Origin: Thermoanaerobaculia bacterium
Lineage (GTDB): Bacteria > Acidobacteriota > Thermoanaerobaculia > Gp7-AA8
Assembly: GCA_038230535.1 (NCBI GenBank)
Contig: JBBRNB010000006.1
Coordinates: forward strand, 10,531-74,530
DNA: 64,000 nt
Direction of reading: 5' to 3'
The notes beneath the pieces were generated by a model. That model was not told where the DNA came from. It did no database searches and worked only from the letters and a program-made list of their open reading frames with translations. This document shows, one piece after another, positions 5,130-62,820 of the stretch; position 1 is the stretch's first letter; each line of letters opens with the position of its first letter. Both the position numbers and the translations under genes were made by a program.

Positions 5130-6440
5130 ATGAAGCGAATCGCAATCCTCATCCTGCTCATCACCTCATCCGCCTTCGCCCAGTCGCTCGATCAGATGAT
5201 CGACCGCGAGATTCCATCGCTTCTCACGACGTACAAGCAGCTTCATGCCGCTCCCGAGCTATCGATGCAGGAGAAGAACAGCTCGGCGCTCGTTGCCGCG
5301 CGGCTGCGCGAGCTTGGTTACGATGTGACCTATCCGGTTGGCCAGTACAGCGAGCCGGGCGCGACCTGCTACGGTGTCGTCGCCATCATGAAGAATGGCA
5401 ACGGTCCGGCCGTTCTGGTTCGCAGCGACATGGATGCGCTGCCGGTGCTGGAGCAGACCGGTTTGCCGTACGCGAGCAGCGTCCGCGCGAAGAGTCCGTC
5501 CGGAGACGACGTACCGGTGATGCACGCCTGCGGACACGACATCCACATGACCACGCTCCTCGGAACAGCGAAGATGCTGGCTCAACTCAAGTCTCAGTGG
5601 CACGGAACGGTGATACTGATCGGCCAGCCAGCCGAGGAAGTGGTCAAAGGGGCGGAGGGGATGATGCGCGACCGGCTGTACGAGCGATTCCCGAAGCCTG
5701 ACTTCGTCATCGCTCTCCACGACAACGCCAACCTCCCTGCGGGGCAGATCGGCTACACATCCGGCTACTTCATGGCCAGCGGAGACTCGGTCAACGTGAC
5801 GATCCGCGGCATGGGAGGTCACGGCGCAGCGCCGCAGGCGACGAAGGATCCGGTAGTGATGGCGGCGCAGTTCATTAATGCGCTGCAGACGATCGTGAGC
5901 CGCGAAGACTCGCCGCTGGACCCGGTGGTCGTCACGGTCGGCTCGATCCACGGCGGGACGAAGCGAAACATCATTCCCGACGAGGTTCAGCTCTTGATGA
6001 CCGTTCGAACGTACAAGCCCGAGGTGCGCAAACGCGTGCTGGCGTCAATCGAACGGATCGCGCGCGGCGTGGCGATGGCGGCGGGCGTACCGGAGGATCG
6101 TGCCCCGATCTTCGAGCTGGTGCCGGGTGAATCAGTCGAAGCGACGTACAACGATCCGGCGCTGACCGAGCGCCTGGCCGCGGCGTTGACGCGCGGGATG
6201 GGCGCCGCGAATGTGATCCGTATCGATCCGCTCATGGTCAGCGAAGACTTCGGCCGTTTCTCCCCCGACCACAAGATCCCCCTCACCATGCTCAACCTCG
6301 GCGCCGTCGACCCCGCAAAGATCGCCAGCGGCCAGCGCCTCCCCTCACTTCACTCGTCCGGCTTCGCGCCCCTTCCCGACCCGACGCTGCGTGGAGGGAT
6401 CAAGGCGATGACGCTGGCGGTGATGGAGTTGTTGCATTAG
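5130..6440 (+). CDS. secreted M20D-family amidohydrolase (hippurate hydrolase/aminoacylase-like)
   Basis: Signal peptide MKRIAILILLITSSAFA. MHACGHDIHMTTLLGTAKML metal-binding motif of the M20/M20D peptidase family. ATG at 5130. Confidence 0.85.
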   Translation: MKRIAILILLITSSAFAQSLDQMIDREIPSLLTTYKQLHAAPELSMQEKNSSALVAARLRELGYDVTYPVGQYSEPGATCYGVVAIMKNGNGPAVLVRSDMDALPVLEQTGLPYASSVRAKSPSGDDVPVMHACGHDIHMTTLLGTAKMLAQLKSQWHGTVILIGQPAEEVVKGAEGMMRDRLYERFPKPDFVIALHDNANLPAGQIGYTSGYFMASGDSVNVTIRGMGGHGAAPQATKDPVVMAAQFINALQTIVSREDSPLDPVVVTVGSIHGGTKRNIIPDEVQLLMTVRTYKPEVRKRVLASIERIARGVAMAAGVPEDRAPIFELVPGESVEATYNDPALTERLAAALTRGMGAANVIRIDPLMVSEDFGRFSPDHKIPLTMLNLGAVDPAKIASGQRLPSLHSSGFAPLPDPTLRGGIKAMTLAVMELLH

Positions 6441-6940
6441 GGCACGCCTTCGGCGTGCGTTTTCTGCGCTGCGCGCGTTGTCGGCGTTGCACGCGTTTTC
6501 TGCGCTGCGCGCGTTTTCTGCGCTACGCGCGTTGTCGGTTGTCGGTTGTCTGCGGCCTGCGGGCCGCGTTGGCGCGTACGCTCTCGATCCTGGACAAACT
6601 CGATCAGGCCTTGCAGAGGGGCGGCGACACGGCGAATCGAACTTCGGAGCCGCCTCCACGTATCGTCGTCGATGTACTCGAGCCGGTGGGCGGCGATCAT
6701 CTGCGCCTGAACCTCGTACAACGACCCGCGCGCATGGCTGAGAAACTGCCGCCATTCACCGGGAGACAACCGTCCTTGTCCTTCTGCGATGTTGCTGACC
6801 ACCGACACAACTGCCCGCCGAAGCTGCTGCGTCAAACCGAATCGCTCGTCTCGCGGAAAGGCCTTGGTTGTCTTGTAGATAGCTACCATCAGATCGAGAG
6901 AGCGCTTGAATGTATCGAGATCTTCAAATGACCTGGTCAT
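6437..6940 (-). CDS. four-helix-bundle protein ('23S rRNA intervening-sequence protein' family), with a C-terminal tail encoded by the flanking repeat arm
   Basis: MTRSFEDLDTFKRSLDLMVAIYKTTKAFPRDERFGLTQQLRRAVVSVVSNIAEGQGR... matches the PF05635/TIGR02436-type family. ATG at 6940. The last roughly 45 aa (QPTTRVAQKTRAAQKTRA...) are a translation of the GCGCGAAGCGCAGACAAC repeat. Confidence 0.8.
   Translation of the reverse strand: MTRSFEDLDTFKRSLDLMVAIYKTTKAFPRDERFGLTQQLRRAVVSVVSNIAEGQGRLSPGEWRQFLSHARGSLYEVQAQMIAAHRLEYIDDDTWRRLRSSIRRVAAPLQGLIEFVQDRERTRQRGPQAADNRQPTTRVAQKTRAAQKTRATPTTRAAQKTHAEGVP
6442..6470 (+). terminator. putative Rho-independent terminator of the amidohydrolase gene
   Basis: GCACGCC-TTCG-GCGTGC stem-loop followed by GTTTTCT. 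Confidence 0.5.
6458..6557. repeat. left arm of inverted tandem-repeat element (units like CGCGTTGTCGG / TTCTGCGCTGCGCG)
   Basis: Tandem copies that are the reverse complement of the 7028-7155 arm. The same family occurs at 8275-8345 and 49586-49945. Confidence 0.75.
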
Positions 6941-7027
6941 CGCGTTTTGCGGTGCTACGGAGAGGAACGAGAGCGATCGAAAACGCAAGAGGCGACCTGC
7001 CGGTCACTCGGTGGGAACCAAATCATA

Positions 7028-7155
7028 CCATCCCACCGCCACTGACAACGCGCGAAACCGCAGACAACGCGCGAAGCGCAGACAACGCGTGAAGCCGCAG
7101 ACAACGCGCAAAGCGCAGACAACGCGTGAAGCCGCAGACAACGCGCAAAGCGCAG
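7028..7155. repeat. right arm of inverted tandem-repeat element (CGCAGACAACGCG(C/T)GAAGC x about 6)
   Basis: Roughly 22-bp units in tandem, complementary to 6458-6557. Together the arms bracket the IVS-protein gene. Confidence 0.8.
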
Positions 7156-8259
7156 CTATCTCACCCCCTCCGCCATCCTCATCACCTCGGCTTCCATCTC
7201 GGGACCGAATTCTGTCTTGATTTCGTTGATCCAGCCGGAGAGGAGCTCGTTGAGGATCTTGCGGATGACAGTGGGGTAGTCGCTGGTGCCGGAGGCGATG
7301 ACGTTGTTGAGGAGCTGGTCGAAGTCGAGGCGGGCTTCGTTCACCAGGTTCATGCCGGAGAGGTGGGGCGTGGTGCCGGCCGGAAGGTGGAAGATCAGGC
7401 GGTCCATGAAGTCGTAGATGTGATCGCCGATGCGCTGAAAGACCAGACTGAAGATCGATTCGTACATCCGGTTGTAGCGCTCGACGACTTCTTCCAGCTC
7501 GTACTCCGTCTCGGCCGCCGCGCGCTGTTCATTGACCGCGCTGCTTTCCGTTTCCGCGACCAGATTCACGCTGAGCAGCGCCCAGAGCGTACGGCAGGTG
7601 ACGAAGTTCGAGAAATAGCTGCGCGAGCAGACTTCCTCGACCGTGCCGGGCTCGGTGAGGAGGCTCAGTACATGGCTCTCTTCGTCCGTCAGCTCCAGAG
7701 AATAGGTCCGTGTGCCGGCGTCGGATACCTGCTGCAGAATGCGGTCGGGCCGCGCCAGACCGCGAATGATCAGCGACCAGAACTCGATGCTCTGTACTCC
7801 GTCGAGGATGAGGCGTTCGGTGTTCAGGGGCAGGGAGATGATCTCCGGCGGAAACTCGCTCGTGAACTCCATGCTGTAACTGCCGGTGCGGTAGCTGACG
7901 GCGTTGAGCACGATCGTGCTCACCTGGCGCTCCACGGCGCGCAACAGCTCGTCAGGCTGCAGGTAGCCAAGCTCGCAGAGCAGTGCGCCGATGCGCCGGG
8001 CCACGACGATCCGGTCCATGGCGAGGTTGTATTGATGAAGCGACAACTCGCCGCTGCGGAGCAGAATCTCGCCAAGCCCCATGTCCGGATCGGAGCTCGA
8101 CGCGAAGATGATCTTCCCCTCGTTGAAGTAGATGACATCGTTCCGGCCGATCGCTTCCAGCGACACGATGCCGGTCTCACCACTCCGAAGCAGCGTCCGG
8201 AAGAGATCCGGAACAGTCGTCTCCGCAAGGGTTCCCTGGATACTCAGACCGTCGGACAT
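7156..8259 (-). CDS. DUF4388 (PatA-like N-terminal domain) protein
   Basis: N-terminus GTLAETTVPDLFRTLLRSGETGIVSLE is the DUF4388 signature. ATG at 8259. Lies 132 bp downstream of the 8392-9684 gene on the same strand. Confidence 0.7.
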   Translation of the reverse strand: MSDGLSIQGTLAETTVPDLFRTLLRSGETGIVSLEAIGRNDVIYFNEGKIIFASSSDPDMGLGEILLRSGELSLHQYNLAMDRIVVARRIGALLCELGYLQPDELLRAVERQVSTIVLNAVSYRTGSYSMEFTSEFPPEIISLPLNTERLILDGVQSIEFWSLIIRGLARPDRILQQVSDAGTRTYSLELTDEESHVLSLLTEPGTVEEVCSRSYFSNFVTCRTLWALLSVNLVAETESSAVNEQRAAAETEYELEEVVERYNRMYESIFSLVFQRIGDHIYDFMDRLIFHLPAGTTPHLSGMNLVNEARLDFDQLLNNVIASGTSDYPTVIRKILNELLSGWINEIKTEFGPEMEAEVMRMAEGVR

Positions 8260-8274
8260 GGCGCGATTATATTG

Positions 8275-8345
8275 CGCTGGCGTATTGCGCTTCGCGCGTT
8301 ATCGGTTGCCGGTTGGTTGCGCGGCTGGGCGCCGCGCGGGCGGTT
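8275..8345. repeat. solo arm of the GCGCTTCGCGCGTT...GGTTGCCGGTTG repeat family
   Basis: TGCGCTTCGCGCGTTATCGGTTGCCGGTTGGTTGCGCGG resembles the arms at 6458-6557 and 49590-49730. Confidence 0.5.
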
Positions 8346-9795: not shown

Positions 9796-10068
9796 GCGAT
9801 GCCTAAATGCTAGGGATCGATGCCTATTAACTAGGGATCGATGCCTAAGGATTAGGAATCGATGCCTATGAATTAGGGCTTGATGCCTGAAAGTTAGGAA
9901 TCGATGCCTAGTACTTAGAGATCGATGCCTAGGAGATAGGGATCGATGGCTAAAAGTCAGGGATCGATGCCTGTTAGATAGGAGTTGATCCCTAAAAGTT
10001 AGGGGTCGATGCCTAAGAGATAGACATCGATCTAGAAATCATGGATCGATCCCGGATCGATATTTGAG
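9796..10068. repeat. AT-rich tandem array, about 12 copies of a 21-bp period (16-bp core TAGGGATCGATGCCTA plus a roughly 5-nt variable spacer); iteron-like
   Basis: Read directly: TAGGGATCGATGCCTAttaac TAGGGATCGATGCCTAaggat TAGGAATCGATGCCTAtgaat ... The last copy is the perfect palindrome GGATCGATCC. Every unit contains GATC. Local GC is far below the window average. Lies 110-380 bp upstream of the start of the 8392-9684 gene. Confidence 0.85.
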
Positions 10069-10924: not shown

Positions 10925-11050
10925 AATGAGATGGGGTAGGCAGAAAGCAGAAAGCAGAAAGCAGAAAGCAGAAATGCTGCGCTACGCCCCACGTTTCGGC
11001 GTAGCGCAGCATTTCTGCCTTCTGCTTTCTGCCTTCTGCTTTCTGCTTTC
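10925..11050. repeat. hairpin element with (GCAGAAA)n / (TTTCTGC)n arms; convergent terminator between the MbtH gene and the 11051-11941 gene
   Basis: GCAGAAAGCAGAAAGCAGAAAGCAGAAAGCAGAAATGCTGCGCTACGCC-loop-GGCGTAGCGCAGCATTTCTGCCTTCTGCTTTCTGC... Confidence 0.8.
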
Positions 11051-11941
11051 TCAACCCCTCTCTAACTCCGCCCGATCCCAACCACCCGCGGCGGCGGCGG
11101 CGGCGTAGGTAGACTGGCAGAAGCGGAGGAGGGCATCCTCCGGGTCGGACGACATGCGGACGGCCTCATACGGGAGGACGTACTCGGAGAAGGCGTCGCT
11201 GTAGAAAGCTTCCGCCGGTTCGACGCGGGCGTCCTTGAAGCCGGCCGGCTGCGGGGCGGCGTAGGCGTAGAACGCCGGCGCGGGGAAGGCGCCGCCGCCG
11301 GGCCACCATCCGCAACTGCTGACCTCGTGTGAGTAAGCTTCGCGCGTGATCGGATCGGCGTTCGGATTGTCCGGGGCGCGGCGGCCGGAGAAGCGGGTGA
11401 CGGCCATGTCGAAGCTGCCCCAGAAGAAGTGTACGGGGCTGCTCTTGCCGATGAACGACGCGCGGAACTGGTTCAACAGGCGGTCGGTGAAAATCAGGAT
11501 GCGCCGGAAGCGTTCGACGGCGTCTCGGTCGTATGATGTGTGCTCATGGTCTTCGGCGAACGGAATCGGGTTGTCGATCTCGACCGGGACCGGCCAGATC
11601 TTGACGTCGATGCCGCACTCATGGAGACGCGCCATCGTCTCGGCGTAGAAATCGGCGACGGAGCGAGGGACGAGCGGCACCCGTCCGTGGCGGCCGTCGC
11701 TGCAGCGGATGACGAGTTGGTGATCGATGAAGTCGAATTCGCAGTCGAAGACGCGGCCGCGATACGGGATCGCCGATGTGGTCAGGCCCCTCGCGCTGAC
11801 GTAGAGCGCAGTGTCCCACCAGTGGTTCACCCGAGGAGCGAGAGCGAGGCGGACCTTGCCGGCGATCTGCGTCCACATGTGCAGAGTGTCGCAGGTCGGC
11901 TTCCAATCTGGCAGCGGCAGGGGATCAAGATCGTTGATCAT
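11051..11941 (-). CDS. conserved hypothetical protein (possibly DUF5996-like; family assignment uncertain)
   Basis: 296-aa ORF with ATG at 11941 (MINDLDPLPLPDWKPTCDTLHMWTQIAGKVRL...). No catalytic motif recognised. Confidence 0.65.
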   Translation of the reverse strand: MINDLDPLPLPDWKPTCDTLHMWTQIAGKVRLALAPRVNHWWDTALYVSARGLTTSAIPYRGRVFDCEFDFIDHQLVIRCSDGRHGRVPLVPRSVADFYAETMARLHECGIDVKIWPVPVEIDNPIPFAEDHEHTSYDRDAVERFRRILIFTDRLLNQFRASFIGKSSPVHFFWGSFDMAVTRFSGRRAPDNPNADPITREAYSHEVSSCGWWPGGGAFPAPAFYAYAAPQPAGFKDARVEPAEAFYSDAFSEYVLPYEAVRMSSDPEDALLRFCQSTYAAAAAAGGWDRAELERG

Positions 11942-12013: not shown

Positions 12014-13045
12014 ATGAACAGCACAAAGAGGTTAGCAGCGCAGATGGCCGGAGTGGTTGCGATTGCGACTCTCTTCGGAACGTCCGCTTTTGCGGACAGT
12101 CGTCACTCAGATGCGACGGAGCGCGATCGTTCCCACCATTCCGACAGGGGCGACAGCCGCGACAACGGCAGACATTCGAATGACCGGCGCGACAACAACA
12201 GCAATCAGTCGCAGACCTTTGAACGGCGCGATTTCCGGGGAAGTGCGCCGCAGACGTTCGAACGGCGCGATGTCCGGGGAAGTGCGCCGCAGACGTTCGA
12301 ACGGCGCGATTTCCGGGGAAGTGCGCCGCAGACCTTTGAACAGCGCGATATCCAGAGAAGCGCGACGCAGACGTTCGAGCGGCGCGATGTCCGCGATAAC
12401 GGGACGCGGTCGTTTGACCGCCGCGAACCCGCCAACAACTTCCGGAATGAGAGCCGCTCGCAGGCCGGGAACTTCCGCGGCAACGAGCGCTGGCAGGGTT
12501 CCCGGGATGACAACCGTTGGCAGGGTTCCCGGAATGACCGCCGGGAGGGCTCTCGAAATGAGCGTCCGTCGTTCGACGATCGTGGCCGCCGCAGCTCGTT
12601 CGTCGAGGGACGGGTCAAGCGCTTCGAACACGAACGGGGTGGTTTCCGCGTGTGGGTCGACGGCGGCCGTTTCCCGGTCTGGATTCCTGAAGCGCGCATC
12701 AATCTCTTCCCCCACCTGCGCGTCGGCGTGTCGCTCCGCTTTGGCGGCTACTACGATCCAGCCGGCTATCTCGATGCGTATGACTACTACGGCGGCCCGG
12801 CGTATGCCGGCGCGCCTGTCTACAGCTCCGGCTACCTGCGGGGAACCGTGGAGACTGTCGACTTTCGCCGCGGCACGCTGGTCATTCGCGATGAGACTTC
12901 CGGCGCCTTCGTAACGGCGGTCATCCGCGACCGCAGTCTGGAAACCCTGCGGCCCGGCGACTACGCCGAGATCGCCGGCGACTGGACCCGCAGCGGTCTC
13001 TTCGAAGGACTGCGTCTCGAAGATGTGCAAGGTGGGCGGTACTGA
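12014..13045 (+). CDS. secreted low-complexity protein with 5 tandem 13-aa repeats (QTFERRDFRGSAP) and a C-terminal globular domain
   Basis: AAAGGAGG RBS and ATG at 12014. Signal peptide MNSTKRLAAQMAGVVAIATLFGTSAFA. 39-bp nucleotide repeats at about 12200-12400. The upstream part of the track ORF is antisense to the neighbouring gene. Confidence 0.7.
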   Translation: MNSTKRLAAQMAGVVAIATLFGTSAFADSRHSDATERDRSHHSDRGDSRDNGRHSNDRRDNNSNQSQTFERRDFRGSAPQTFERRDVRGSAPQTFERRDFRGSAPQTFEQRDIQRSATQTFERRDVRDNGTRSFDRREPANNFRNESRSQAGNFRGNERWQGSRDDNRWQGSRNDRREGSRNERPSFDDRGRRSSFVEGRVKRFEHERGGFRVWVDGGRFPVWIPEARINLFPHLRVGVSLRFGGYYDPAGYLDAYDYYGGPAYAGAPVYSSGYLRGTVETVDFRRGTLVIRDETSGAFVTAVIRDRSLETLRPGDYAEIAGDWTRSGLFEGLRLEDVQGGRY

Positions 13046-14072: not shown

Positions 14073-14240
14073 TGTCAGTGGATCAGTAGGTCAGTGGATC
14101 AGTGGATCAGGAACATGCTGGTCGTTGGGTCCTGATCCTGATTCTCTGGTCAACTCATCAAGTCGTTGTTTCGATCAGAAACGAGAGGTCTTCTGATCCT
14201 GATCCACTGATCCACGAACCACCGATCCACTCACTGAATC
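14073..14240. repeat. hairpin element of the GATCAGTG / CACTGATC family
   Basis: GTCAGTGGATCAGTAGGTCAGTGGATCAGTGGATCAGG...loop...CTGATCCTGATCCACTGATCCACGAACCACCGATCCACTCACTG. Confidence 0.8.
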
Positions 14241-18739: not shown

Positions 18740-18835
18740 ATTGGTCGATCAGTGGATTTAGCAGGTCTGTGGTTCAGGATCAGAAGCCCGCGATTCGATT
18801 CTGAATCAACTGATCTACGGATCTATCGGCTGAGA
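18740..18835. repeat. degenerate GATCAGTG-family hairpin
   Basis: GATCAGTGGATTTAGCAGGTCTGTGGTTCAGGATCAG...CTGAATCAACTGATCTACGGATC. Confidence 0.5.
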
Positions 18836-30394: not shown

Positions 30395-30590
30395 TAGTCG
30401 ATCAGTGGGCTGGTCGATCAGTAGATTGGTCGATCAGTAGATCAGAAACATGAAACCTGATCCTGATCCACTGATCCACCGCGGTCCCTGATCCACTGAT
30501 CTACTGATCCACTGATCCACTGATCCACTGATCCACTGATCCACTGATCCACCGCGGTCCCTGATCCACCGATCACTGATCCACAGCATC
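30395..30590. repeat. large hairpin element of the GATCAGTG / CACTGATC family
   Basis: GTCGATCAGTGGGCTGGTCGATCAGTAGATTGGTCGATCAGTAGATCAG...loop...(CCACTGATC)x6. Confidence 0.85.
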
Positions 30591-31611: not shown

Positions 31612-31905
31612 AAACGCCTGGCGCACACTGTCAGCCGGTGGCGCGCACTGTGAGCCGGGTGGCGCGCACTGTGAGCTGGGCGGCGCGCACTGTGAGCCGG
31701 GTGGCGCGCACTGTGAGCCGGGTGGCGCGCACTGTGAGCCGGGTGGCGCGCACTGTGAGCCGGGTGGCGCACACTGTCGGCCGGGCGGCGCACACTGTGA
31801 GCCGGGTGGCGCGCACTGTGAGCCGGGTGGCGCACACTGTCGGCCGGGCGGCGCACACTGTGAGCCGGGTGGCGCACACTGTGAGCCGGGCGGCGCACAC
31901 TGTGA
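31612..31905. repeat. 21-bp tandem repeat x about 14 (GGCGCGCACTGTGAGCCGGGT and variants)
   Basis: Read directly. The period is exactly 21 bp and sits in frame with the downstream hydrolase ORF, giving PAHS(V/A)R(H/R) heptads on the minus strand. Confidence 0.9.
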
Positions 31906-32575: not shown

Positions 32576-32639
32576 ACTCGTAATCTCCTGTTCGGAATCC
32601 AGTTGGGGAAAGACTACTGCAAGAGGGAAGCCGTGAATG

Positions 32640-32700
32640 AGTCGATCAGTGGATCAGACGGCGTGTTTCTGATCCACTGATCTACCAACCCACGGATCGA
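32640..32700. repeat. short GATCAGTG-family hairpin
   Basis: GTCGATCAGTGGATCAGACGGCGTGTTTCTGATCCACTGATCTAC. Confidence 0.6.
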
Positions 32701-46430: not shown

Positions 46431-46439
46431 GGTTGGTTT

Positions 46440-46590
46440 GTGTGAATCAGTGGGTCAGTGGATCAGTGGTCAGTGGTCAGTGGGTCAGTGGGTCAGTGGG
46501 TCAGTGGGTCAGTGGACGGACAGAAACAGCATTCTCCCGATCTACCGATCACGAATCGACTGATCCACTTGATTACTGCCTCATCGCAAC
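46440..46590. repeat. GTCAGTGG-family hairpin inserted between dxr and rseP
   Basis: (GGTCAGTGG)x8 ... GATCTACCGATCACGAATCGACTGATCCACTTGA. Confidence 0.8.
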
Positions 46591-47736
46591 ATCAATTCCT
46601 CGCGCTTCTTCCCGAGCCCATCGGTCCCATGCAAGCGCATCGCCGACCGACGAGATCGGAGCGATGCGGCCGGCATGCCGGTCGAGTACGCGGGACACCA
46701 TGTCTACGATTCCGGTGAACGGAAGTTCCCCAGCCAGGAAGCGCTCTACGGCCACCTCGTTTGCAGCGTTCAGTACCGCGGGCATCGAGCCGCCGGCGCG
46801 GCAGGCGGCGTAGGCCAGCTCGACGGCAGGGAAGCGCTGAGGATCGACGGCGGTGAATTCGAGCTTATGAATCTTCGCCAGATCGAGTCTCGCGAACGGT
46901 GCTGCTACGCGCTCGGGATAGAGCAGTGCGTACTGGATCGGGAACTTCATATCGGTCGTGGATAGCTGTGCGATGAACGAGCCGTCGACGTACTCGACCA
47001 TCGAATGGACGATCGACTGTGGGTGGATGAGGATGTCGATGGCTTCCGGCGGCATGGAGAAGAGGTGGTGCGCCTCGATTACTTCGAGGCCTTTGTTCAT
47101 CATGGTGGCGGAGTCGATGGAGATCTTGTTCCCCATCTTCCAGGTCGGATGAGCCAGAGCGTCGGCGATGGTGACGTTCGCGAAGGTGTCTAGATCGCGG
47201 CGGAGGAATGGTCCGCCCGAGGCGGTGAGCACGATGCGCTGGACCTCGGCGTGTACACCGCAGCGGAGAGCCTGGTGGACAGCGTTGTGCTCGGAGTCGA
47301 CAGGAAGGATCTCGCCGCCGTTCTCTGCGGCTGCACGCGTCATCAAATCGCCGGCGGCGACGAGGACTTCCTTGTTGGCGATTCCGACGCGCTTCCCTGC
47401 TTTCAGCGCCGCGTAAACGGGCGGGATGCCTGCCGCTCCGACGATCGCGGCGATGACGGCGTCGGCTTTGGGCAGCGAAGCGACTACCGAGGCTCCCTCC
47501 GCGCCGCAGACGATCTCCACGCGGCGCTTGACGCGCGTGCGCAACGCTGCGACGTCTTCGGGATTGCGAACCGATACGACTTCCGGTGCGTAGCGCTCGA
47601 TTTGCTCCGCGAGGAGATCAAGATTTCCGCCCGCGGCCAGGCCGATGACGCGCAGTGCCGCGGGGAACGCATCGACGACGTCGAGCGTCGATCGCCCGAC
47701 GGAACCGGTGGAGCCGAGGATTGTGATGTTGCGCAT
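46573..47736 (-). CDS. dxr: 1-deoxy-D-xylulose 5-phosphate reductoisomerase
   Basis: MRNITILGSTGSVGRSTLDVV N-terminus and full-length colinearity with Dxr. Confidence 0.9.
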   Translation of the reverse strand: MRNITILGSTGSVGRSTLDVVDAFPAALRVIGLAAGGNLDLLAEQIERYAPEVVSVRNPEDVAALRTRVKRRVEIVCGAEGASVVASLPKADAVIAAIVGAAGIPPVYAALKAGKRVGIANKEVLVAAGDLMTRAAAENGGEILPVDSEHNAVHQALRCGVHAEVQRIVLTASGGPFLRRDLDTFANVTIADALAHPTWKMGNKISIDSATMMNKGLEVIEAHHLFSMPPEAIDILIHPQSIVHSMVEYVDGSFIAQLSTTDMKFPIQYALLYPERVAAPFARLDLAKIHKLEFTAVDPQRFPAVELAYAACRAGGSMPAVLNAANEVAVERFLAGELPFTGIVDMVSRVLDRHAGRIAPISSVGDALAWDRWAREEARGIDVAMRQ

Positions 47737-47744
47737 GGGTTGTG

Positions 47745-47880
47745 GTGGATCGGTCGATCAGCGGCTGGTGGTTCAAAGCAGTGGATCGGTCGATCAGTCG
47801 GCCAGTGGATCTGGATCAGAATACCAAGTGTTCCTGATCCGCTAGTCTACCGATCCACTAGTCTGCTTATCCACTGATCC
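47745..47880. repeat. GATCAGTG-family hairpin (degenerate) between cdsA and dxr
   Basis: GATCGGTCGATCAGCGGCTGGTGG...CAGTGGATCGGTCGATCAGTCGGCCAGTGGATCTGGATCAG...CTGATCCGCTAGTCTACCGATCCACTAG. Confidence 0.65.
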
Positions 47881-47882
47881 TC

Positions 47883-48707
47883 TCACGCCGACATGATCTT
47901 GAAACTCCTGAAATCGTGCAGGATGAGGAACCAGTACACGTACAGGATCGGGGTTGTGTAGAAAATCGAGTCGAATCGATCGAGGAAGCCTCCGTGACCG
48001 GGGATCAGGGTCCCTGAGTCTTTCACGGCCGCAGAGCGTTTCCACATCGATTCCGCGAGATCGCCGATCACGCCGGCGAGCGAGAGAATCACGCCTGCGA
48101 TGATGGCGTGTACGAGCGGGAAGGTCTTGAAGAAGGTGAAGTGGATGATGACGGCGGTGGCGATTGCCGTGGCCACGCCGCCGATGAGTCCTTCCACGGT
48201 CTTCTTCGGGCTGATGCGCGGCGATAGCTTGTGACGGCCGAAGGTACGGCCGAAGTAGTAGGCGCCGCTGTCGCCGAGCCAGACCACGAGCAGCAGGAAG
48301 AACACCAGCTTCGCGCCATCGGCGAAGTCGTCGTGCAGACGGATCAGCGACCCGCCGAGCATTCCCACATAGAGCGTGGCCATCACGGCGATGGCACTCG
48401 ATGGCAGTGCCTCTTCGAGCTCCCCGTGCGAGAGGACATAGAAGCCTGGGATCACCAGCAACGCCACGAAGACGCCCATCTCGACGGAGATGGGCTCCAG
48501 GATGAATGCCGCGATGATGAAGAGCATCACCGCGATGCAGAGTGGAATGGGGAGGTGGTAGCCCTTCCTCTTGCCGAGGTCGAGGAGCTCGTAGAGGGCG
48601 AGCGCCGATATGAGGGCCATGGCCGCGTCGAAGACATACGGCTGCGCCCAACCGATCATCCAGATGGCGAAGGGAGCGGCGATGAGTGCGGTCAGCTCGC
48701 GCTTCAT
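47883..48707 (-). CDS. cdsA: phosphatidate cytidylyltransferase
   Basis: Multi-TM protein with a C-terminal DSGAYYFGRTFGRHKL...KTVEG signature. Confidence 0.85.
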   Translation of the reverse strand: MKRELTALIAAPFAIWMIGWAQPYVFDAAMALISALALYELLDLGKRKGYHLPIPLCIAVMLFIIAAFILEPISVEMGVFVALLVIPGFYVLSHGELEEALPSSAIAVMATLYVGMLGGSLIRLHDDFADGAKLVFFLLLVVWLGDSGAYYFGRTFGRHKLSPRISPKKTVEGLIGGVATAIATAVIIHFTFFKTFPLVHAIIAGVILSLAGVIGDLAESMWKRSAAVKDSGTLIPGHGGFLDRFDSIFYTTPILYVYWFLILHDFRSFKIMSA

Positions 48708-48749
48708 GAGATTGACATGGGACTGAACGGGCGGGGGCGGATGGTAGCG

Positions 48750-49565
48750 CTAAGACTGTTGATTATCCGCCTCGATGAACATCTGCGCGTCGGATTCATC
48801 GACGGCACCGTAGCGGCGCTCGCGCGACTGGAAGTCGATGATCGCTTCGAAGAGGTCGCGGCGGCGAAAATCGGGCCAGAGCACTTTCGTGACATGGATC
48901 TCCGCATAGGCGATCTGCCAGAGCAGGAAGTTCGAGACGCGGAGCTCGCCGCTGGTGCGGATGAGGAGATCCGGGTCGTCGATGTTGGCGGTATAGAGAT
49001 GATCGGCAAAGAACTGCTCGTCGATCTGGGCGTCGCTCATCTCCCGCTCGCGCAGGACGGCCATGATGCGGTTGACGGTGTCGACGATCTCGGCGCGGCC
49101 GCCGTAGTTGAGGGCGATCTGGAAGAGCAGACCGCTGTTCTTGGCGGTCTGGTCCTCGGCATACTTCAGCTCTCGCTGCACCGAGGGATCGAGCCCTTCC
49201 ACGCGGCCGATGGCGGTGAAACGAATGTTGTTTTCCATCAGCGTGGCCAGCTCTTTCCGCAGGTACTCCTTGAGCAGCATCATGAGCGTGGCCACTTCGA
49301 AGCGTGGGCGTTTCCAATTCTCCACGGAGAACGCGTAGAGCGTCATGACGCGCAGCTCGAGGCGGGCTGCCGTCTCGACGATCTCGCGCACCGAGGCGAT
49401 GCCGGCGCGGTGTCCTTCCACGCGGGGAAGGTTGCGGGCACGCGCCCAGCGCCCGTTCCCATCCATGATCACAGCGATGTGCCGCGGCAGCCTCTTGAAG
49501 TCGACGCGATCGAGGATTGTTTCCTCGATCGAGCCTGGTTCAGCGAGTTTGCGCAAGTCAATCAT
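48750..49565 (-). CDS. uppS: isoprenyl transferase (undecaprenyl diphosphate synthase)
   Basis: HIAVIMDGNGRWA and ...RTSGELRVSNFLLWQIAYAE motifs. Confidence 0.9.
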   Translation of the reverse strand: MIDLRKLAEPGSIEETILDRVDFKRLPRHIAVIMDGNGRWARARNLPRVEGHRAGIASVREIVETAARLELRVMTLYAFSVENWKRPRFEVATLMMLLKEYLRKELATLMENNIRFTAIGRVEGLDPSVQRELKYAEDQTAKNSGLLFQIALNYGGRAEIVDTVNRIMAVLREREMSDAQIDEQFFADHLYTANIDDPDLLIRTSGELRVSNFLLWQIAYAEIHVTKVLWPDFRRRDLFEAIIDFQSRERRYGAVDESDAQMFIEADNQQS

Positions 49566-49585
49566 GGAGCGAGGGATGTTATCGC

Positions 49586-49945
49586 AGCTTTGTGGTTAAT
49601 TGCACTTTGTTGTCTGCGCTTCGCGCGTTGTCGGTTGCCGGTTGTCTGCGCTTCGCGCGTTGCCGGTTGCCGGTTGTCTGCGCTTCGCGCGTTGCCGGTA
49701 GTCGGTTGTCTGCGCTTCACGCGTTGCCGCACCGAGAGGGGCGCGAAGGTGTAACCATCGCCCGACGGGCCGCTAACGCCCAAAGGGCAGACAACGTGCG
49801 AAGCGCAGACAACGCCCAAAGGGCAGACAACGCGCGAAGCGCAGACAACGCCCGAAGGGCAAACAACGCCCAAAGGGCAGACAACGCGTGAGCGCAGACA
49901 ACGCCCGAAGCGCAGATAACCGACAACGCGCGAAGCGCAGACTAC
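49586..49945. repeat. cargo-less palindromic element of the GCGCGAAGCGCAGACAAC family (tandem-repeat arms in inverted orientation around a roughly 50-bp centre)
   Basis: Left arm (GTTGTCTGCGCTTCGCGCGTTGCCGGTTGCCG)x4, right arm (GCAGACAACGCGCGAAGCGCAGACAACGCCCAAAGG)x4. Same family as the arms flanking the IVS-protein gene at 6458-7155. Confidence 0.85.
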
Positions 49946-49952
49946 GAAGGGC

Positions 49953-50660
49953 CTAGTACCCCACATCCCACAACGTCAGCCCTTTCGACGGGGCGGTCCA
50001 TCGCGCTTCGGTCCAGAGCGCTTCCGGTTCCAGCTTGCCGCGGCCGATCTCGATGAGGGAGCCGGCGATGCGGCGGACCATGTAGCGGAGGAAGCCGCCG
50101 GCGGTGACGGGGATGACGATCGCGGTGCCGTCGCGAATGACGTCGATCGACGTGATCGTCCGCTCCGTCGAGCTGACCTCGGGGCCGGCGACGGTGAAGA
50201 GCGCAAAGTCATGGCGGCCGGTCAGCTCCATGGCGACGGCGCGCATTCTGCCGGTATCGAGCGGCTGAGGGACATGCGCATGGGTCTGCCAGGCGAAAAC
50301 GTCTGCAGTCTCATCGTTCCAGATGCGGTAGATGTAGCTCTTCGAGCTCGCTGCGAAGCGGCAGTGGAAATCATCCGCCACGATCTCGACCGCGGTGACG
50401 CGGATGTCGTGTGGCAGCAGGTTGTTGATGCCCTGGCGGAACCCGCGAGGCTCGATGGCGAAGGGCACGTCGGCGTGCGCGCGTTGCGCCCGTGCGTGGA
50501 CGCCTGCGTCGGTGCGGCCGGCCCCTTCGATGCGGATGGGGCTGCTGAACATCGTCGTCAGCGCGGCCTCGATGACGTTCTGAATGCCCGTCGCGTTCGT
50601 CTGCGACTGCCAGCCGGCGTAGCGCGTGCCGAGGTATTGAAGCGTCAGGAGAACGCGCAC
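49953..50660 (-). CDS. truA: tRNA pseudouridine(38-40) synthase
   Basis: MRVLLTLQYLGTRYAGWQSQ...GRTDAGVHA (catalytic Asp) matches TruA. Confidence 0.9.
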   Translation of the reverse strand: MRVLLTLQYLGTRYAGWQSQTNATGIQNVIEAALTTMFSSPIRIEGAGRTDAGVHARAQRAHADVPFAIEPRGFRQGINNLLPHDIRVTAVEIVADDFHCRFAASSKSYIYRIWNDETADVFAWQTHAHVPQPLDTGRMRAVAMELTGRHDFALFTVAGPEVSSTERTITSIDVIRDGTAIVIPVTAGGFLRYMVRRIAGSLIEIGRGKLEPEALWTEARWTAPSKGLTLWDVGY

Positions 50661-60981: not shown

Positions 60982-62700
60982 ATGCGTCTCCGGATCATCG
61001 TGCCGCTTCTCATCGCGCTGCTCGGCTCTCCGCAGCTCGCGCGCGGTTTCAGCGGCCCGTGCTGCGATTTCTGCACCGATCAATACCAGCAGGAAGGACA
61101 GTTCCCTTACTTCGAGGTGATCCGCACACGCCGGTTGATCATCAACGGAGACATCGTTGGTGGTCAGGGGTGGAAGCGCGTCTTCGAGAGTTGCGAGCAG
61201 GCGGGGCGGGTCAACATCACCGCATCGACCGAGGTCACTGTTGTCGCACGCGCCTACCTCGAGATTGCTGAGCCGAGCACGCCGGGCGCCGGCATCGAGT
61301 ACCGTTGGCTGCTCGACGACGTGCCCGTCGGTCCGACGTTTCATTTTCTTGCTGGCCGGGCCGGGTTCCCGCAGGGGGATGACATCAACATCGTTCTCCC
61401 GCAAGTACCTGCCGGACAACATCGCGTGGCCATCGACGGGCGCGTGACCGGCGACGGCCGTATCAGTTTCCGGCTCCTCTTCATCACCGCGCAAGGGTTT
61501 CCATCCGCCGCGTTTCCGAGTGATTCGCTGATCGTCTCGAGCAGCAGGACGATTGGCAGCGATTGGACCGAAGTGAGTCCTTCGCTCGGCCTTTCTCTGC
61601 CGCAGTCAGCGCACCTCTACTTCCAGGGGTATGTCGAATTCGCAGGCGGCGAGACAGTCAATTTCCGTTACGTGGTCGATGGTATTCCTCTGACGCCCTT
61701 GCGCGTCGTCATCCCGCCTGGTGGTGGCCTCAGCCTCTGGGATCACCTCGGCGACCCCATCGCGGCCGGCGCGCACAGCGTCCGGCTGGAGGGGCGCGCG
61801 GACTCTCCGGCGGTGATGACGCTCGCGCAGGTCGAAGCCGCGACGGGACCGGCGACGATCCAGAACAAGCCGTTGCCAGTGTTCAATGCCGATGTGAACG
61901 GCTCGCTCGGTACGGATCATCAGCCGCTCAACTGCCTCATCCTCGCCGAGGGGGCTTCCGGAGGGACGGGTGGGTTGGGCGGGACGCCCGCGTGCGGTAA
62001 GTACGACCTGCTATTCGATGCCCAACTGCCGGCGGCACCGCTCACATCGTCGGGGAGCGCCTTCGATGATTACACCGCGTTTGGCGACGGCTTTGTCGAG
62101 ATCGAAAACCGGAGCGGCACGAACGGAGTGGTCACGCTGACCGTCGAAGCGATCTACGAGGATGCGAGGGCGGGCGCCTGCAACGCGCTCGTCGAAGCGG
62201 CAGATACGGCATGCGCGAATCCGAGTGCCTGTTCGACGGCCGACTTCACGCTCGTCGAGTTCGCTGTACCGCCCGGCCGCACGCAGAAGTTCTTCTATGT
62301 CGATCCGATTCACTGGGGCTCTTTGGCGCCGAATCGCATTCGTCTCTGGGCGCGCTCGCAGAACGGCTGCGGCTCGGCTCCTGTCGGCCTGACATTCGGC
62401 CGCAGCCGCCTGGGCATGCAGCTCGTTCCAGCCGGCAACGGATCCTGTTTCTCCGCGCACGCGACGGGGCGCGCCGCGGCACCAGCGGTATCGGTATCGG
62501 CAGCGGGCTCGAAGGTTCCGCTCCGACCCCATCAGCGTGACCGTGCCACCGATCGCGCCGCGACGGCGAAGTGCGGGGAATTGATGCTGTCGGTCGATCA
62601 GTGGATTGGTGGATCAGTGGATCAGTGGATCAGTGGATCAGTGGATCAGTTGATCAGTGGGGCAGTGGTCAATGGTCAGTGGGGTCAACGACCCAGTTGA
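60982..62700 (+). CDS. secreted Cys-containing hypothetical protein whose C-terminus is encoded by GATCAGTG repeats
   Basis: Signal peptide MRLRIIVPLLIALLGSPQLARG. ATG 4 bp after the dnaE stop. The last roughly 35 aa (SVDQWIGGSVDQWISGSVDQLISG...) translate the hairpin arm. Confidence 0.6.
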   Translation: MRLRIIVPLLIALLGSPQLARGFSGPCCDFCTDQYQQEGQFPYFEVIRTRRLIINGDIVGGQGWKRVFESCEQAGRVNITASTEVTVVARAYLEIAEPSTPGAGIEYRWLLDDVPVGPTFHFLAGRAGFPQGDDINIVLPQVPAGQHRVAIDGRVTGDGRISFRLLFITAQGFPSAAFPSDSLIVSSSRTIGSDWTEVSPSLGLSLPQSAHLYFQGYVEFAGGETVNFRYVVDGIPLTPLRVVIPPGGGLSLWDHLGDPIAAGAHSVRLEGRADSPAVMTLAQVEAATGPATIQNKPLPVFNADVNGSLGTDHQPLNCLILAEGASGGTGGLGGTPACGKYDLLFDAQLPAAPLTSSGSAFDDYTAFGDGFVEIENRSGTNGVVTLTVEAIYEDARAGACNALVEAADTACANPSACSTADFTLVEFAVPPGRTQKFFYVDPIHWGSLAPNRIRLWARSQNGCGSAPVGLTFGRSRLGMQLVPAGNGSCFSAHATGRAAAPAVSVSAAGSKVPLRPHQRDRATDRAATAKCGELMLSVDQWIGGSVDQWISGSVDQLISGAVVNGQWGQRPS

Positions 62701-62820
62701 TCAGTTGACCTGATCCACCGATAACCGATCCACTGATCACCGATCACCGATCCACCGATCCACCGATCACCGATCCACTGATCGACTGACCCACTGATCC
62801 ACTGATCCACCGATCGACAT
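62590..62820. repeat. large GATCAGTG / CACTGATC-family hairpin
   Basis: (GGATCAGTG)x6 ... loop ... (CCGATCACCGATCCAC)-type units and CCACTGATCC copies. Confidence 0.85.

Follow-up and report, generated by a model that had tools for sequence, protein, structure and literature searches.

The spacer between truA and uppS in the window, by which is meant the whole 64,000-nt stretch of Thermoanaerobaculia DNA analysed here, carries a palindromic element built from two tandem arrays in opposite orientation, which runs from the first nucleotide past the truA stop codon to 37 nt ahead of the uppS start codon (Table 1). We hold with moderate confidence that this hairpin is an ORF-less, IVS/REP-like member of a palindromic family dispersed in soil Thermoanaerobaculia, that it arose after the split from the nearest sampled relatives, and that it most likely acts as an RNase III substrate and/or a 3'-end barrier. 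It is most likely a selfish structural insert rather than a dedicated regulator of uppS. An earlier note on this DNA had described a palindromic tandem-repeat element within the conserved truA-uppS-cdsA-dxr-rseP block, and repeat searches, RNA folding, Pfam and NCBIfam assignments and gene order all confirm this. The five genes, all on the minus strand, were identified by both Pfam and NCBIfam, and their order is conserved across Acidobacteriota.

Table 1. Positions in the window of the truA-uppS element, its parts and neighbours, and of related or companion repeats
Feature	Position	Strand	Remarks
Whole palindromic element (paired region)	49602..49952		~350 bp; from RNA fold and inverted pair
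Left arm	49609..49729		Tandem Repeats Finder: period 32, 3.8 copies, 95% matches, score 214
Central non-repeated loop	49730..49777		~48 nt; small local hairpins only in the fold
Right arm	49778..49945		~9-10 copies of an 18-nt module
truA (tRNA pseudouridine38-40 synthase)	49953..50660	-	TIGR00071, 170 bits; PF01416
uppS (undecaprenyl diphosphate synthase)	48750..49565	-	PF01255, 281 bits; start codon 49563-49565
-10-like hexamer TAACAT	49576..49581	-	Between the element and uppS, 10 nt from the ATG; proposed uppS promoter
Gene-carrying sibling copy	6441..7155	-	Left arm 6441-6560 and right arm 7040-7155, inverted; TIGR02436 gene between them
Solo arm	~8270..8345		GCGCTTCGCGC GTTATCG GTTGCCG GTTGGTT GCGCGG..CCGCGC
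Second-family hairpin (GATCAGTG octamer arrays), cdsA-dxr spacer	47737..47882		Fold z = -5.0
TCAGTGGG tandem array, dxr-rseP spacer	46445..46515		Tandem Repeats Finder: 8.9 copies; opposite arm degenerate

The spacer measures 387 nt (49566-49952). When it is folded as RNA, the outer stem pairs the stretch at 49952 with that at 49602, and the repeat search returned the same two ends as an inverted pair (49602-49636 with 49918-49952, 91%); these limits replace the interval 49586-49945 given previously. On the minus strand, in the coding sense of the flanking genes, a single long branched hairpin is formed (-242.6 kcal/mol, z = -14.6, against -157.8 +/- 5.8 kcal/mol for shuffled sequences), and the plus strand reaches -236.1 kcal/mol (z = -11.6). 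The outer helix has about 25 consecutive pairs, so that the terminal inverted repeats make a stable stem, and inverted pairs between both arrays are numerous, with lengths of up to 40 nt at 83% and 24 nt at 100%. The truA stop codon, a TAG at 49953-49955, abuts the element, and a CTAC lies inside its right end (49942-49945) with no equivalent on the left.

Both arms are assembled from the same two pieces, a GC mini-hairpin of 11-16 nt with a GAA loop (TTC on the other strand) and a 7-nt spacer, GTTGYCN/NGRCAAC. The left module of 32 nt holds one mini-hairpin and three heptamers, in the order GTTGTCT, GCGCTTCGCGC, GTTGYCG (GTTGCCG in the Tandem Repeats Finder unit) and GTTGCCG. The right module of 18 nt holds one mini-hairpin, either GCGCGAAGCGC or GCCCRAAGGGC, and one heptamer, AGACAAC. 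Tandem Repeats Finder placed the right array at 49759-49920 (9.1 copies of the 18-nt GCSCRAAGSGC AGACAAC, 79% matches), and the repeat search continued it to 49946. Units of the right arm begin at 49778, 49796, 49814, 49832, 49850, 49868, 49903 and 49928, one of the units being 17 nt long and another having an additional heptamer. GTTGYCN/AGACAAC heptamers are present all along both arms, and the window has 17 matches to the 18-mer core at no more than 3 mismatches, where shuffled sequences predict 0.27. The arms are unequal, at 4 x 32 nt against ~10 x 18 nt, where four equal units on each side had been proposed. Because of this inequality the stem is interrupted rather than almost continuous, as had been thought: GCCCAAAGGGC units and GTTGCCG heptamers bulge out of it as side hairpins.

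The unit variants GCGC..GCGC and GCCC..GGGC differ by a compensatory pair of changes, and across the family the stems vary yet stay self-complementary (GCGGC..GCCGC, GCATGC..GCATGC, GCACGC..GCGTGC). Since stem sequence changes while self-complementarity is kept, every unit forms a hairpin of its own, as REP units do, and it is the pairing of two arrays of mini-hairpins, at a higher order, that makes the long one. The loop between the arms (49730-49777) has no ORF, in agreement with the earlier description, and a tblastn search of it with the four-helix-bundle protein discussed below found neither such a gene nor a remnant. A mechanically called ORF of 134 aa (49562-49966, minus strand) crosses the whole element; it is low-complexity sequence encoded by the repeats, has no Pfam match, and was rejected as a gene. 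A CRISPR array was also dismissed, as the units are contiguous, lack unique spacers, and form two inverted arrays. No Rfam family, rRNA included, matched in the window at the gathering threshold, and membership of an Rfam family was therefore rejected; with an E-value threshold instead, the best match below the gathering score (268) was to a long hairpin of generic type, MIR918 (55 bits).

The element is absent from the nearest relatives. The closest UppS loci come from an Acidobacteriota MAG (L001, 85% UppS identity to the window) and a Thermoanaerobaculia MAG (L002, 80%), and their truA-uppS spacers measure 75 nt and 36 nt, respectively. The TruA C-terminus has the same length in the window and L001 and ends at the same residue in all three, and the sequence just upstream of the uppS ATG, TAACAT included, aligns in all three. 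Short spacers with aligned flanks indicate that the 350-bp element is a lineage-specific insertion or expansion. Comparison of the orthologous spacer, which the earlier note had suggested as a check, accordingly gave an absence in both relatives instead of an identical position in all of them. The L001 spacer does contain one module-like piece, made of two GNCAACC heptamers and a GC mini-hairpin. Among more distant Acidobacteriota, two (L006, L011) have unrelated structured inserts at the truA-uppS junction, and most others have spacers of 36-140 nt. The suggestion of a mobile insertion stands in part: an insertion or lineage-specific expansion is evident from the relatives' spacers and the family occupies many other loci (see below), but the target-site duplications that were looked for at the ends of the element are missing, the flanks (GGTTAATT on one side, CTAGTACC on the other) being without a direct repeat.

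Repeat arrays also occupy other junctions of the truA-rseP block, as Tandem Repeats Finder and the folds both show, in line with what had been reported. The two GTCAGTGG hairpins described there as companions of the element fared differently. That in the cdsA-dxr spacer folds significantly (Table 1), whereas the fold of 46431-46572 in the dxr-rseP spacer does not (z = -1.06), this being essentially a one-sided tandem array. The GATCAGTG octamer pattern has 47 matches at seven sites in the window, including the cdsA-dxr and dxr-rseP spacers, against 0.5 expected. A perfect hairpin of GCAGAAA heptamers lies elsewhere in the window, at ~10938-11048 (z = -14.6). A 2.5-kb Logan contig is 100% identical to positions 46487-48951 and stops inside a repeat array. 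The relatives have arrays of their own at junctions of the block: in L001 these are GAACGAT/GTTCATC (uppS-cdsA) and GTTGTCG/GACAACT (cdsA-dxr), and in L002 GAGGCTG, both upstream of truA and between dxr and rseP. The pattern across relatives is one of frequent gain and loss of tolerated elements and not that of a conserved regulator. The differences between relatives in their hairpin arrays, and in the junctions of the block that bear them, argue for tolerated turnover and against the specific effect on operon polarity that had been considered.

Outside the block, the family of the truA-uppS element is dispersed. An exact 24-mer of the element (GACAACGCGCGAAGCGCAGACAAC) was found at 69 loci in JGI soil metagenomes, many of them on different large contigs of the same samples, and most of these loci are laid out as a left arm, a loop of 20-250 nt and a right arm. 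They share a multi-module consensus which includes a conserved outermost unit (CTGCGGCTTCGCCGC ... GCGGCGAAGCCGCAG), and orthologous copies from different metagenomes differ by whole units (L105/L106, L114/L124). Arm ends lie within 0-3 nt of a stop codon in 63 of 117 distinct ends under a strict pattern, and in more by eye; the ends read T[AG][AG], which is usually the stop codon of the flanking gene, with a preceding G in 33 of the 63 (52%). Between an element whose end points towards a gene start and the start codon of that gene, there is usually a TATAAT-, AATAAT- or TAACAT-like box. The proportion of spacers with strong hairpins is 43% for co-directional, 47% for convergent and 20% for divergent gene pairs. 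No target-site duplication is visible across the family, and the flanks instead prolong the palindrome (TAA...TTA). RNA-strand asymmetry (G-U against A-C pairs) was not found in 43 co-directional spacers, the sense strand being favoured in 22 and the antisense strand in 21 (Wilcoxon p = 0.30). With the two strands equally stable, there is no G-U trace of selection for one of the RNA strands, and the palindrome may matter as DNA or not at all.

Two further members lie in the window itself. The sibling copy at 6441-7155 directly adjoins, on both sides, the stop codons of two convergent genes (6438-6440 and 7156-7158), and carries between its arms a gene with an ATG at 6940 and a conserved domain to ~6557, the ORF of which continues into the arm as far as 6437. 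Beside the solo arm (~8270-8345) is a TATAAT box, which the start codon of a gene (7156-8259) follows at a distance of 6 nt. The gene of the sibling copy encodes a 'four helix bundle protein' (TIGR02436, 104.9 bits; cutoff 24) of PF05635, the family named after the intervening sequences (IVS) of 23S rRNA. The protein is related to DGR Avd and matches PDB entry 2GSC (Xanthomonas XCC0516) at E = 2.7e-22. The crystal entries of its relatives, 2GSC and 2RLD, contain five chains each. The PADLOC defence-system libraries gave no match to the protein.

Four-helix-bundle genes lie inside inverted arms at every locus examined, in three phyla. Within Thermoanaerobaculia, arms of GCGCTTCGCGC and GTTGTCG surround them in the window and in L128, L137/L150, L151, L153/L154, L155, L156 and L157. 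L156 holds an orthologous cassette at the same M20-peptidase/PatA_N site as the window, and in L151, L155 and L157 the cassette is found each time between lptB and an lptA-like gene. Such synteny between genomes, of the window with L156 and of L151 with L155 and L157, indicates that the cassettes are long-term residents and not visibly mobile. In Verrucomicrobia-like loci (L067, L158, L159) the arms are GTTGAG-type heptamer arrays. In Xanthomonas/Pseudoxanthomonas (L161-L163) the gene sits between the accB stop codon and the accC start codon, where four GGGAATC heptamers on one flank face their complement on the opposite one (30 nt; complementarity 83-87%). The arms beside four-helix-bundle genes contain 3-5 heptamers each, at a regular 7-nt periodicity. 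By the sequence of its arms, the truA-uppS element belongs to a family in which the copies with an ORF are IVS-like cassettes, and is itself a copy without one. The other ORF-less loops likewise had no detectable remnants of the four-helix-bundle gene, so a derivation from a gene-carrying copy is based on the shared arms; a weak four-helix-bundle match in L091 proved to be an unrelated internal repeat.

As regards expression, the earlier note had placed the element within the operon, and this is uncertain because the conserved TAACAT box sits between the element and uppS. The element's uppS-side end stops ~20 nt short of this box, which is invariant in the window, L001 and L002 at 10-14 nt from the uppS ATG. 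The uppS start has no Shine-Dalgarno sequence, and the same GCTAACATCC-type motif also precedes lptB (L151, L155, L157) and, in the window, cdsA. A two-hexamer sigma-70 promoter scan called no promoter and did not pick up TAACAT. By its conservation and position, the box suggests that uppS may have its own promoter downstream of the element. A role as terminator, which had also been put forward, is not borne out in its canonical form: the terminator scan found no U-tract or T-run after the stem, its sole call being an internal site at chance level, and an intrinsic (Rho-independent) terminator was rejected since the GC-rich hairpin lacks a U-tract.

From these observations the following sequence of events can be proposed. 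An element built of modules, each a GC mini-hairpin (GAA/TTC loop) with one to three GTTGYCN heptamers, would have arisen in the truA-uppS spacer by insertion and/or by the expansion of a one-module seed, after the split from the nearest sampled relatives. Copy number in the arms would change by slippage, which would explain the 4 x 32 nt and ~10 x 18 nt arms. Transcription of truA would then produce a hairpin with ~170 paired positions, starting right after the stop codon. RNase III could cut the heptamer stem, by analogy with the Coxiella IVS, and/or the hairpin could block 3' exonucleases and read-through; cleavage by RNase III is plausible. In either case the hairpin would mark the 3' end of the truA message, ending or stabilising it and uncoupling it from uppS, and uppS would be expressed largely from its own promoter as an mRNA with a short leader. 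Such expression of uppS would account for the insertion being tolerated, and the local effect of the element is probably modest.

Several other explanations could be offered for these data. If the element were a strict REP/REPIN, a REP-associated tyrosine (HUH/Y1) transposase would recognise the single-stranded DNA of its mini-hairpins and spread them without target-site duplication, with the four-helix-bundle gene a mere passenger or neighbour and any RNA effect incidental. Much of the structure is compatible with this, in that short GC hairpin units form head-to-head inverted pairs, which lie outside genes, for the most part downstream of ORFs, and often end directly against a stop codon (T[AG][AG], with a G before it in about half), comparable to the GTAG termini of REPs (PMC3733652). 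The lack of target-site duplications, at the truA-uppS copy as in the family, and the lack of strand bias in fold energy, as expected of a palindrome acting at the DNA level, also favour it, and a Y1_Tnp gene is present in a related contig (L153). However, this sole Y1 transposase in ~1.5 Mb of loci (L153/L154; a partial sampling and not a whole genome) has another palindrome, GGGGTCACACCTTCG, on its flanks, one that does not occur in the window, and no Y1 gene flanked by the truA-uppS family was found in the window and these loci. A GTAG-like tag is not clearly conserved at the ends of the truA-uppS copy, and the gene that the family does consistently flank, in three phyla, is the four-helix-bundle gene. 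We consider a strict REP/REPIN origin somewhat unlikely. Growth in place is clearly less probable. Here the hairpin would not be mobile but would have grown from a small terminator-like hairpin by replication slippage and arm-to-arm copying, and have been kept as a bidirectional barrier or insulator after truA. The module-like remnant at the same site in L001, the different module lengths of the two arms, as expected of independent slippage, the whole-unit differences between orthologous metagenome copies, and the use of different heptamers at different junctions in different genomes are all in keeping with such a history. Near-identical multi-module arms, outermost CTGCGGCTTCGCCGC unit included, nevertheless recur at dozens of unrelated loci, so local growth alone cannot explain the family, and there is no U-tract.

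It is also improbable that the arrays are DNA or RNA binding sites, for example iteron-like sites for a pentameric four-helix-bundle protein or another factor, forming a dispersed regulatory or nucleoid-organising network with the hairpin as a secondary feature. Avd binds nucleic acid. The regular 7-nt periodicity, with a few heptamers per arm beside four-helix-bundle genes, would suit such a protein, as would the five chains per entry in the crystals of its relatives, and paired heptanucleotide arrays in Geobacter have been annotated as putative global-regulator sites (PMC2700814). Against this, heptamer sequence is poorly conserved within arrays, and the inverted symmetry and compensatory changes in the mini-hairpins point to intramolecular pairing. 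A cis-regulator dedicated to uppS or truA (an attenuator or a riboswitch-like leader, for instance) would be consistent with the position of the element directly upstream of uppS, and it is the reading to which we attach very little probability: the nearest relatives lack the element in the orthologous spacer, the same sequence lies beside unrelated genes, Rfam offers nothing above threshold and only the generic long-hairpin match far below it, and the -10-like box intervenes between the element and uppS. A MITE of DDE type was rejected, as there is no direct target-site duplication and no transposase was found. The preferred reading therefore remains that of an ORF-less IVS/REP-like insert.

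The wider pattern is more useful than the element itself, since genes for the IVS protein lie in the loops of tandem-heptamer hairpins within conserved operons in three phyla as well as in the published Coxiella IVS. In the literature searched, no paper linking four-helix-bundle genes outside rRNA with heptamer arrays was found, and searches for such genes together with heptamer or inverted repeats led only to the Coxiella IVS paper. We tentatively propose, as a possibility held with low confidence, that PF05635/TIGR02436 genes are the signature of widespread hairpin cassettes, the stems of which are inverted arrays of lineage-specific heptamers, and which colonise transcribed spacers of housekeeping operons (lptA/lptB, accB/accC, truA/uppS-type) and also 23S rRNA. 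Hairpins without an ORF, like the present one, would be non-autonomous derivatives of these cassettes, and the pentameric protein might recognise the arrays for spread or for control of RNA processing. If true, this would unite three things that have so far been poorly understood: the ORF-bearing 23S IVS elements, the very abundant four-helix-bundle genes and the intergenic heptamer repeats. It would also make the function of the four-helix-bundle protein testable (binding to heptamer arrays, influence on RNase III processing), and would explain why short-read assemblies break at such spacers in these soil bacteria.

Several known classes of repeat share features with the element. MITEs such as Correia/NEMIS and ERIC are small, non-coding elements with terminal inverted repeats, which are dispersed in intergenic regions and co-transcribed, with RNase III or terminator effects in some. 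The truA-uppS element is like MITEs of DDE origin in its small size, lack of coding sequence, terminal inverted repeats and intergenic dispersal, but differs from them in having no target-site duplication, no related transposase-bearing IS, and arms that are tandem arrays and not unique repeats. Cyanobacterial STRR are intergenic tandem repeats of heptamers. TAACTGA heptamer repeats have been reported in Beggiatoaceae, Cyanobacteria and Bacteroidetes (PMC4679880), and the arrays of Geobacter metallireducens are paired (PMC2700814). Common to all of these and to the present element are the 7-nt period, intergenic location, lineage-specific heptamers and variable copy number, and short-read contigs break in them; the Geobacter arrays also occur as inverted pairs. 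In contrast to the present element, intergenic heptamer repeats are mostly direct arrays without a partner arm, and a link to four-helix-bundle genes was not found for them in the literature searched.

The element also resembles REP, BIME and REPIN elements. These are likewise short, GC-rich imperfect palindromes, clustered and in head-to-head pairs, extragenic and mostly downstream of ORFs, with ends that often coincide with stop codons, and they form species-specific families of many copies without target-site duplication (PMC3733652). GTAG termini of REPs have been reported to supply TAG stop codons (PMC3733652). Unlike in REPs, heptamer spacers here separate the units, which have been multiplied into long tandem arrays, the embedded gene is consistently a four-helix-bundle gene and not a transposase, no RAYT flanked by the truA-uppS family was found, and the GTAG tag is not clearly conserved. 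The element thus resembles REPs, with strict membership unproven given these last two points.

There is also a parallel with the 23S IVS of Coxiella and Leptospira, which carry an S23p/PF05635 ORF. The IVS of Coxiella burnetii has the S23p ORF in its loop and a 28-bp stem of terminal inverted repeats, with tandem GACAGAT heptamers that differ in number between strains and RNase III cleavage sites in the stem, at the first heptamer (PMC4990558). The truA-uppS element is not an IVS in the strict sense, as it lies in an mRNA spacer and not in a 23S rRNA helix (9, 25 or 45) and has no ORF. Its arms of ~120-190 nt are also far longer than the 28-bp stem and have GC mini-hairpins between the heptamers, and RNase III, which excises the IVS, is predicted to cut the truA-uppS element by analogy. 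In both, terminal inverted repeats give a long stem with a variable number of heptamers (GACAGAT in Coxiella, GACAACN/GTTGTCN here). A PF05635 ORF occupies the loop in members of both families, in the present one at 6441-7155 of the window and not in the truA-uppS copy, and, like the IVS, the truA-uppS element is located in a highly conserved unit that is transcribed, and does not destroy it.

The repeat family of the truA-uppS element also occurs in the window with a gene inside it. A cassette on the minus strand carries a four-helix-bundle gene (TIGR02436/PF05635, the '23S rRNA IVS protein' family), and the inverted arrays that form the arms around this gene belong to the element's family. 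The stop codons of two convergent neighbour genes lie flush with the cassette, and the four-helix-bundle ORF continues into the left arm, so that the repeat encodes the C-terminal tail of the protein. Another Thermoanaerobaculia locus (L156) has an orthologous cassette at this site.

The truA-uppS junction itself is interrupted in two distant Acidobacteriota. The L006 insert is a hairpin with perfect 25-nt outer arms and TCAATGG/ATTGACA heptamers, and that of L011 is made of GC-rich 15-16-nt arrays. These structured inserts are unrelated, and the junction is therefore a recurrent landing or expansion site.

Repeat-flanked four-helix-bundle genes were also seen in other phyla. In Xanthomonas and Pseudoxanthomonas an orthologue of XCC0516 (PDB 2GSC) is inserted in the accB-accC spacer and has GGGAATC heptamer arrays on its flanks, its GTG start likely lying inside the left array. 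In a Verrucomicrobia-like locus (L158), the first of two such genes has GTTGAG arrays on either side, and CGAACGT heptamer arrays lie ahead of the second. The majority of four-helix-bundle homologues are found on very short contigs, which is consistent with assembly breaks at multi-copy flanking repeats. Arrays also form the end points of short-read contigs (the end of comparison locus L081; many P00xx/P01xx contigs under 2 kb).

A second dispersed family in the window consists of octamer arrays, GATCAGTG/CACTGATC, in inverted orientation. The pattern has 47 matches in the window vs 0.5 expected, and GATC is present in all units.

Features in the window and in comparison loci (L-numbers)
Feature	Position	Setting
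Four-helix-bundle gene cassette	window 6441-7155	minus strand
GATCAGTG/CACTGATC octamer arrays, seven sites	window 14073-14220, 18740-18830, 30395-30575, 32636-32690, 46445-46565, 47748-47880, 62596-62815	
(GCAGAAA)5 ... (TTTCTGC)5 near-perfect hairpin	window 10938-11048	around GC stem
Tandem 21-nt units (n=11), CGATGCCTA-NNNNN-TAGGGAT	window 9797-10031	divergent intergenic region
Long tandem repeat, in-frame-looking, 21 nt x 13.7 copies	window 31619-31905	inside/adjoining predicted ORF
Long tandem repeat, in-frame-looking, 39 nt x 4.7 copies	window 12210-12426	inside/adjoining predicted ORF
TATAAT box	window ~8266-8271	
TACCAT box	window ~48741-48746	
TAACAT box	window 49576-49581	minus strand
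Boxes of recurring type	L151 ~10625; L155 ~3210; L157 ~3104	
Unrelated structured inserts	L006 5559-5982; L011 5628-5994	truA-uppS junction
XCC0516 orthologue region	L161/L162 2425-2872; L163 2489-2933	between accB and accC
P-II (glnB-like) gene flanked by two different four-helix-bundle genes	L158 2001-3341	upstream of bacA/uppP

The GCAGAAA/TTTCTGC hairpin (-91.1 kcal/mol, z = -14.6) sits between a small MbtH-like-looking ORF region and a gene at 11051-11941. The CGATGCCTA array has a constant CCTA/TAGG stem and a 5-nt loop that changes in nearly every unit. It differs in type from the other arrays. The two long tandem repeats probably encode repetitive protein segments.

Directly after repeat elements, a GCTA(A/C)CATCC or TATAAT-like box recurs 5-15 nt upstream of start codons; at cdsA the distance is about 33 nt. 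These starts have no Shine-Dalgarno sequence, and together this suggests leaderless or very-short-leader mRNAs and gene-by-gene promoters in the source lineage.

Palindromes were also observed in related Thermoanaerobaculia loci. The recJ gene of L151 carries an in-frame insert (6600-6790) that separates the DHH domain from DHHA1. It is a hairpin of GGTTGC/GCAACC inverted arrays, about 190 nt long, and is translated into a low-complexity linker; REPs within repair genes are on record in other bacteria (PMC3733652). A Y1_Tnp (RAYT-like) gene of 319 aa is present in L153 (16760-18661) and also in L154, flanked by a different palindrome, GGGGTCACACCTTCG / CGAAGGTGTGACCCC, which is absent from the window. 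This Y1_Tnp gene with its palindrome copies matches the arrangement of classical REP-RAYT systems.
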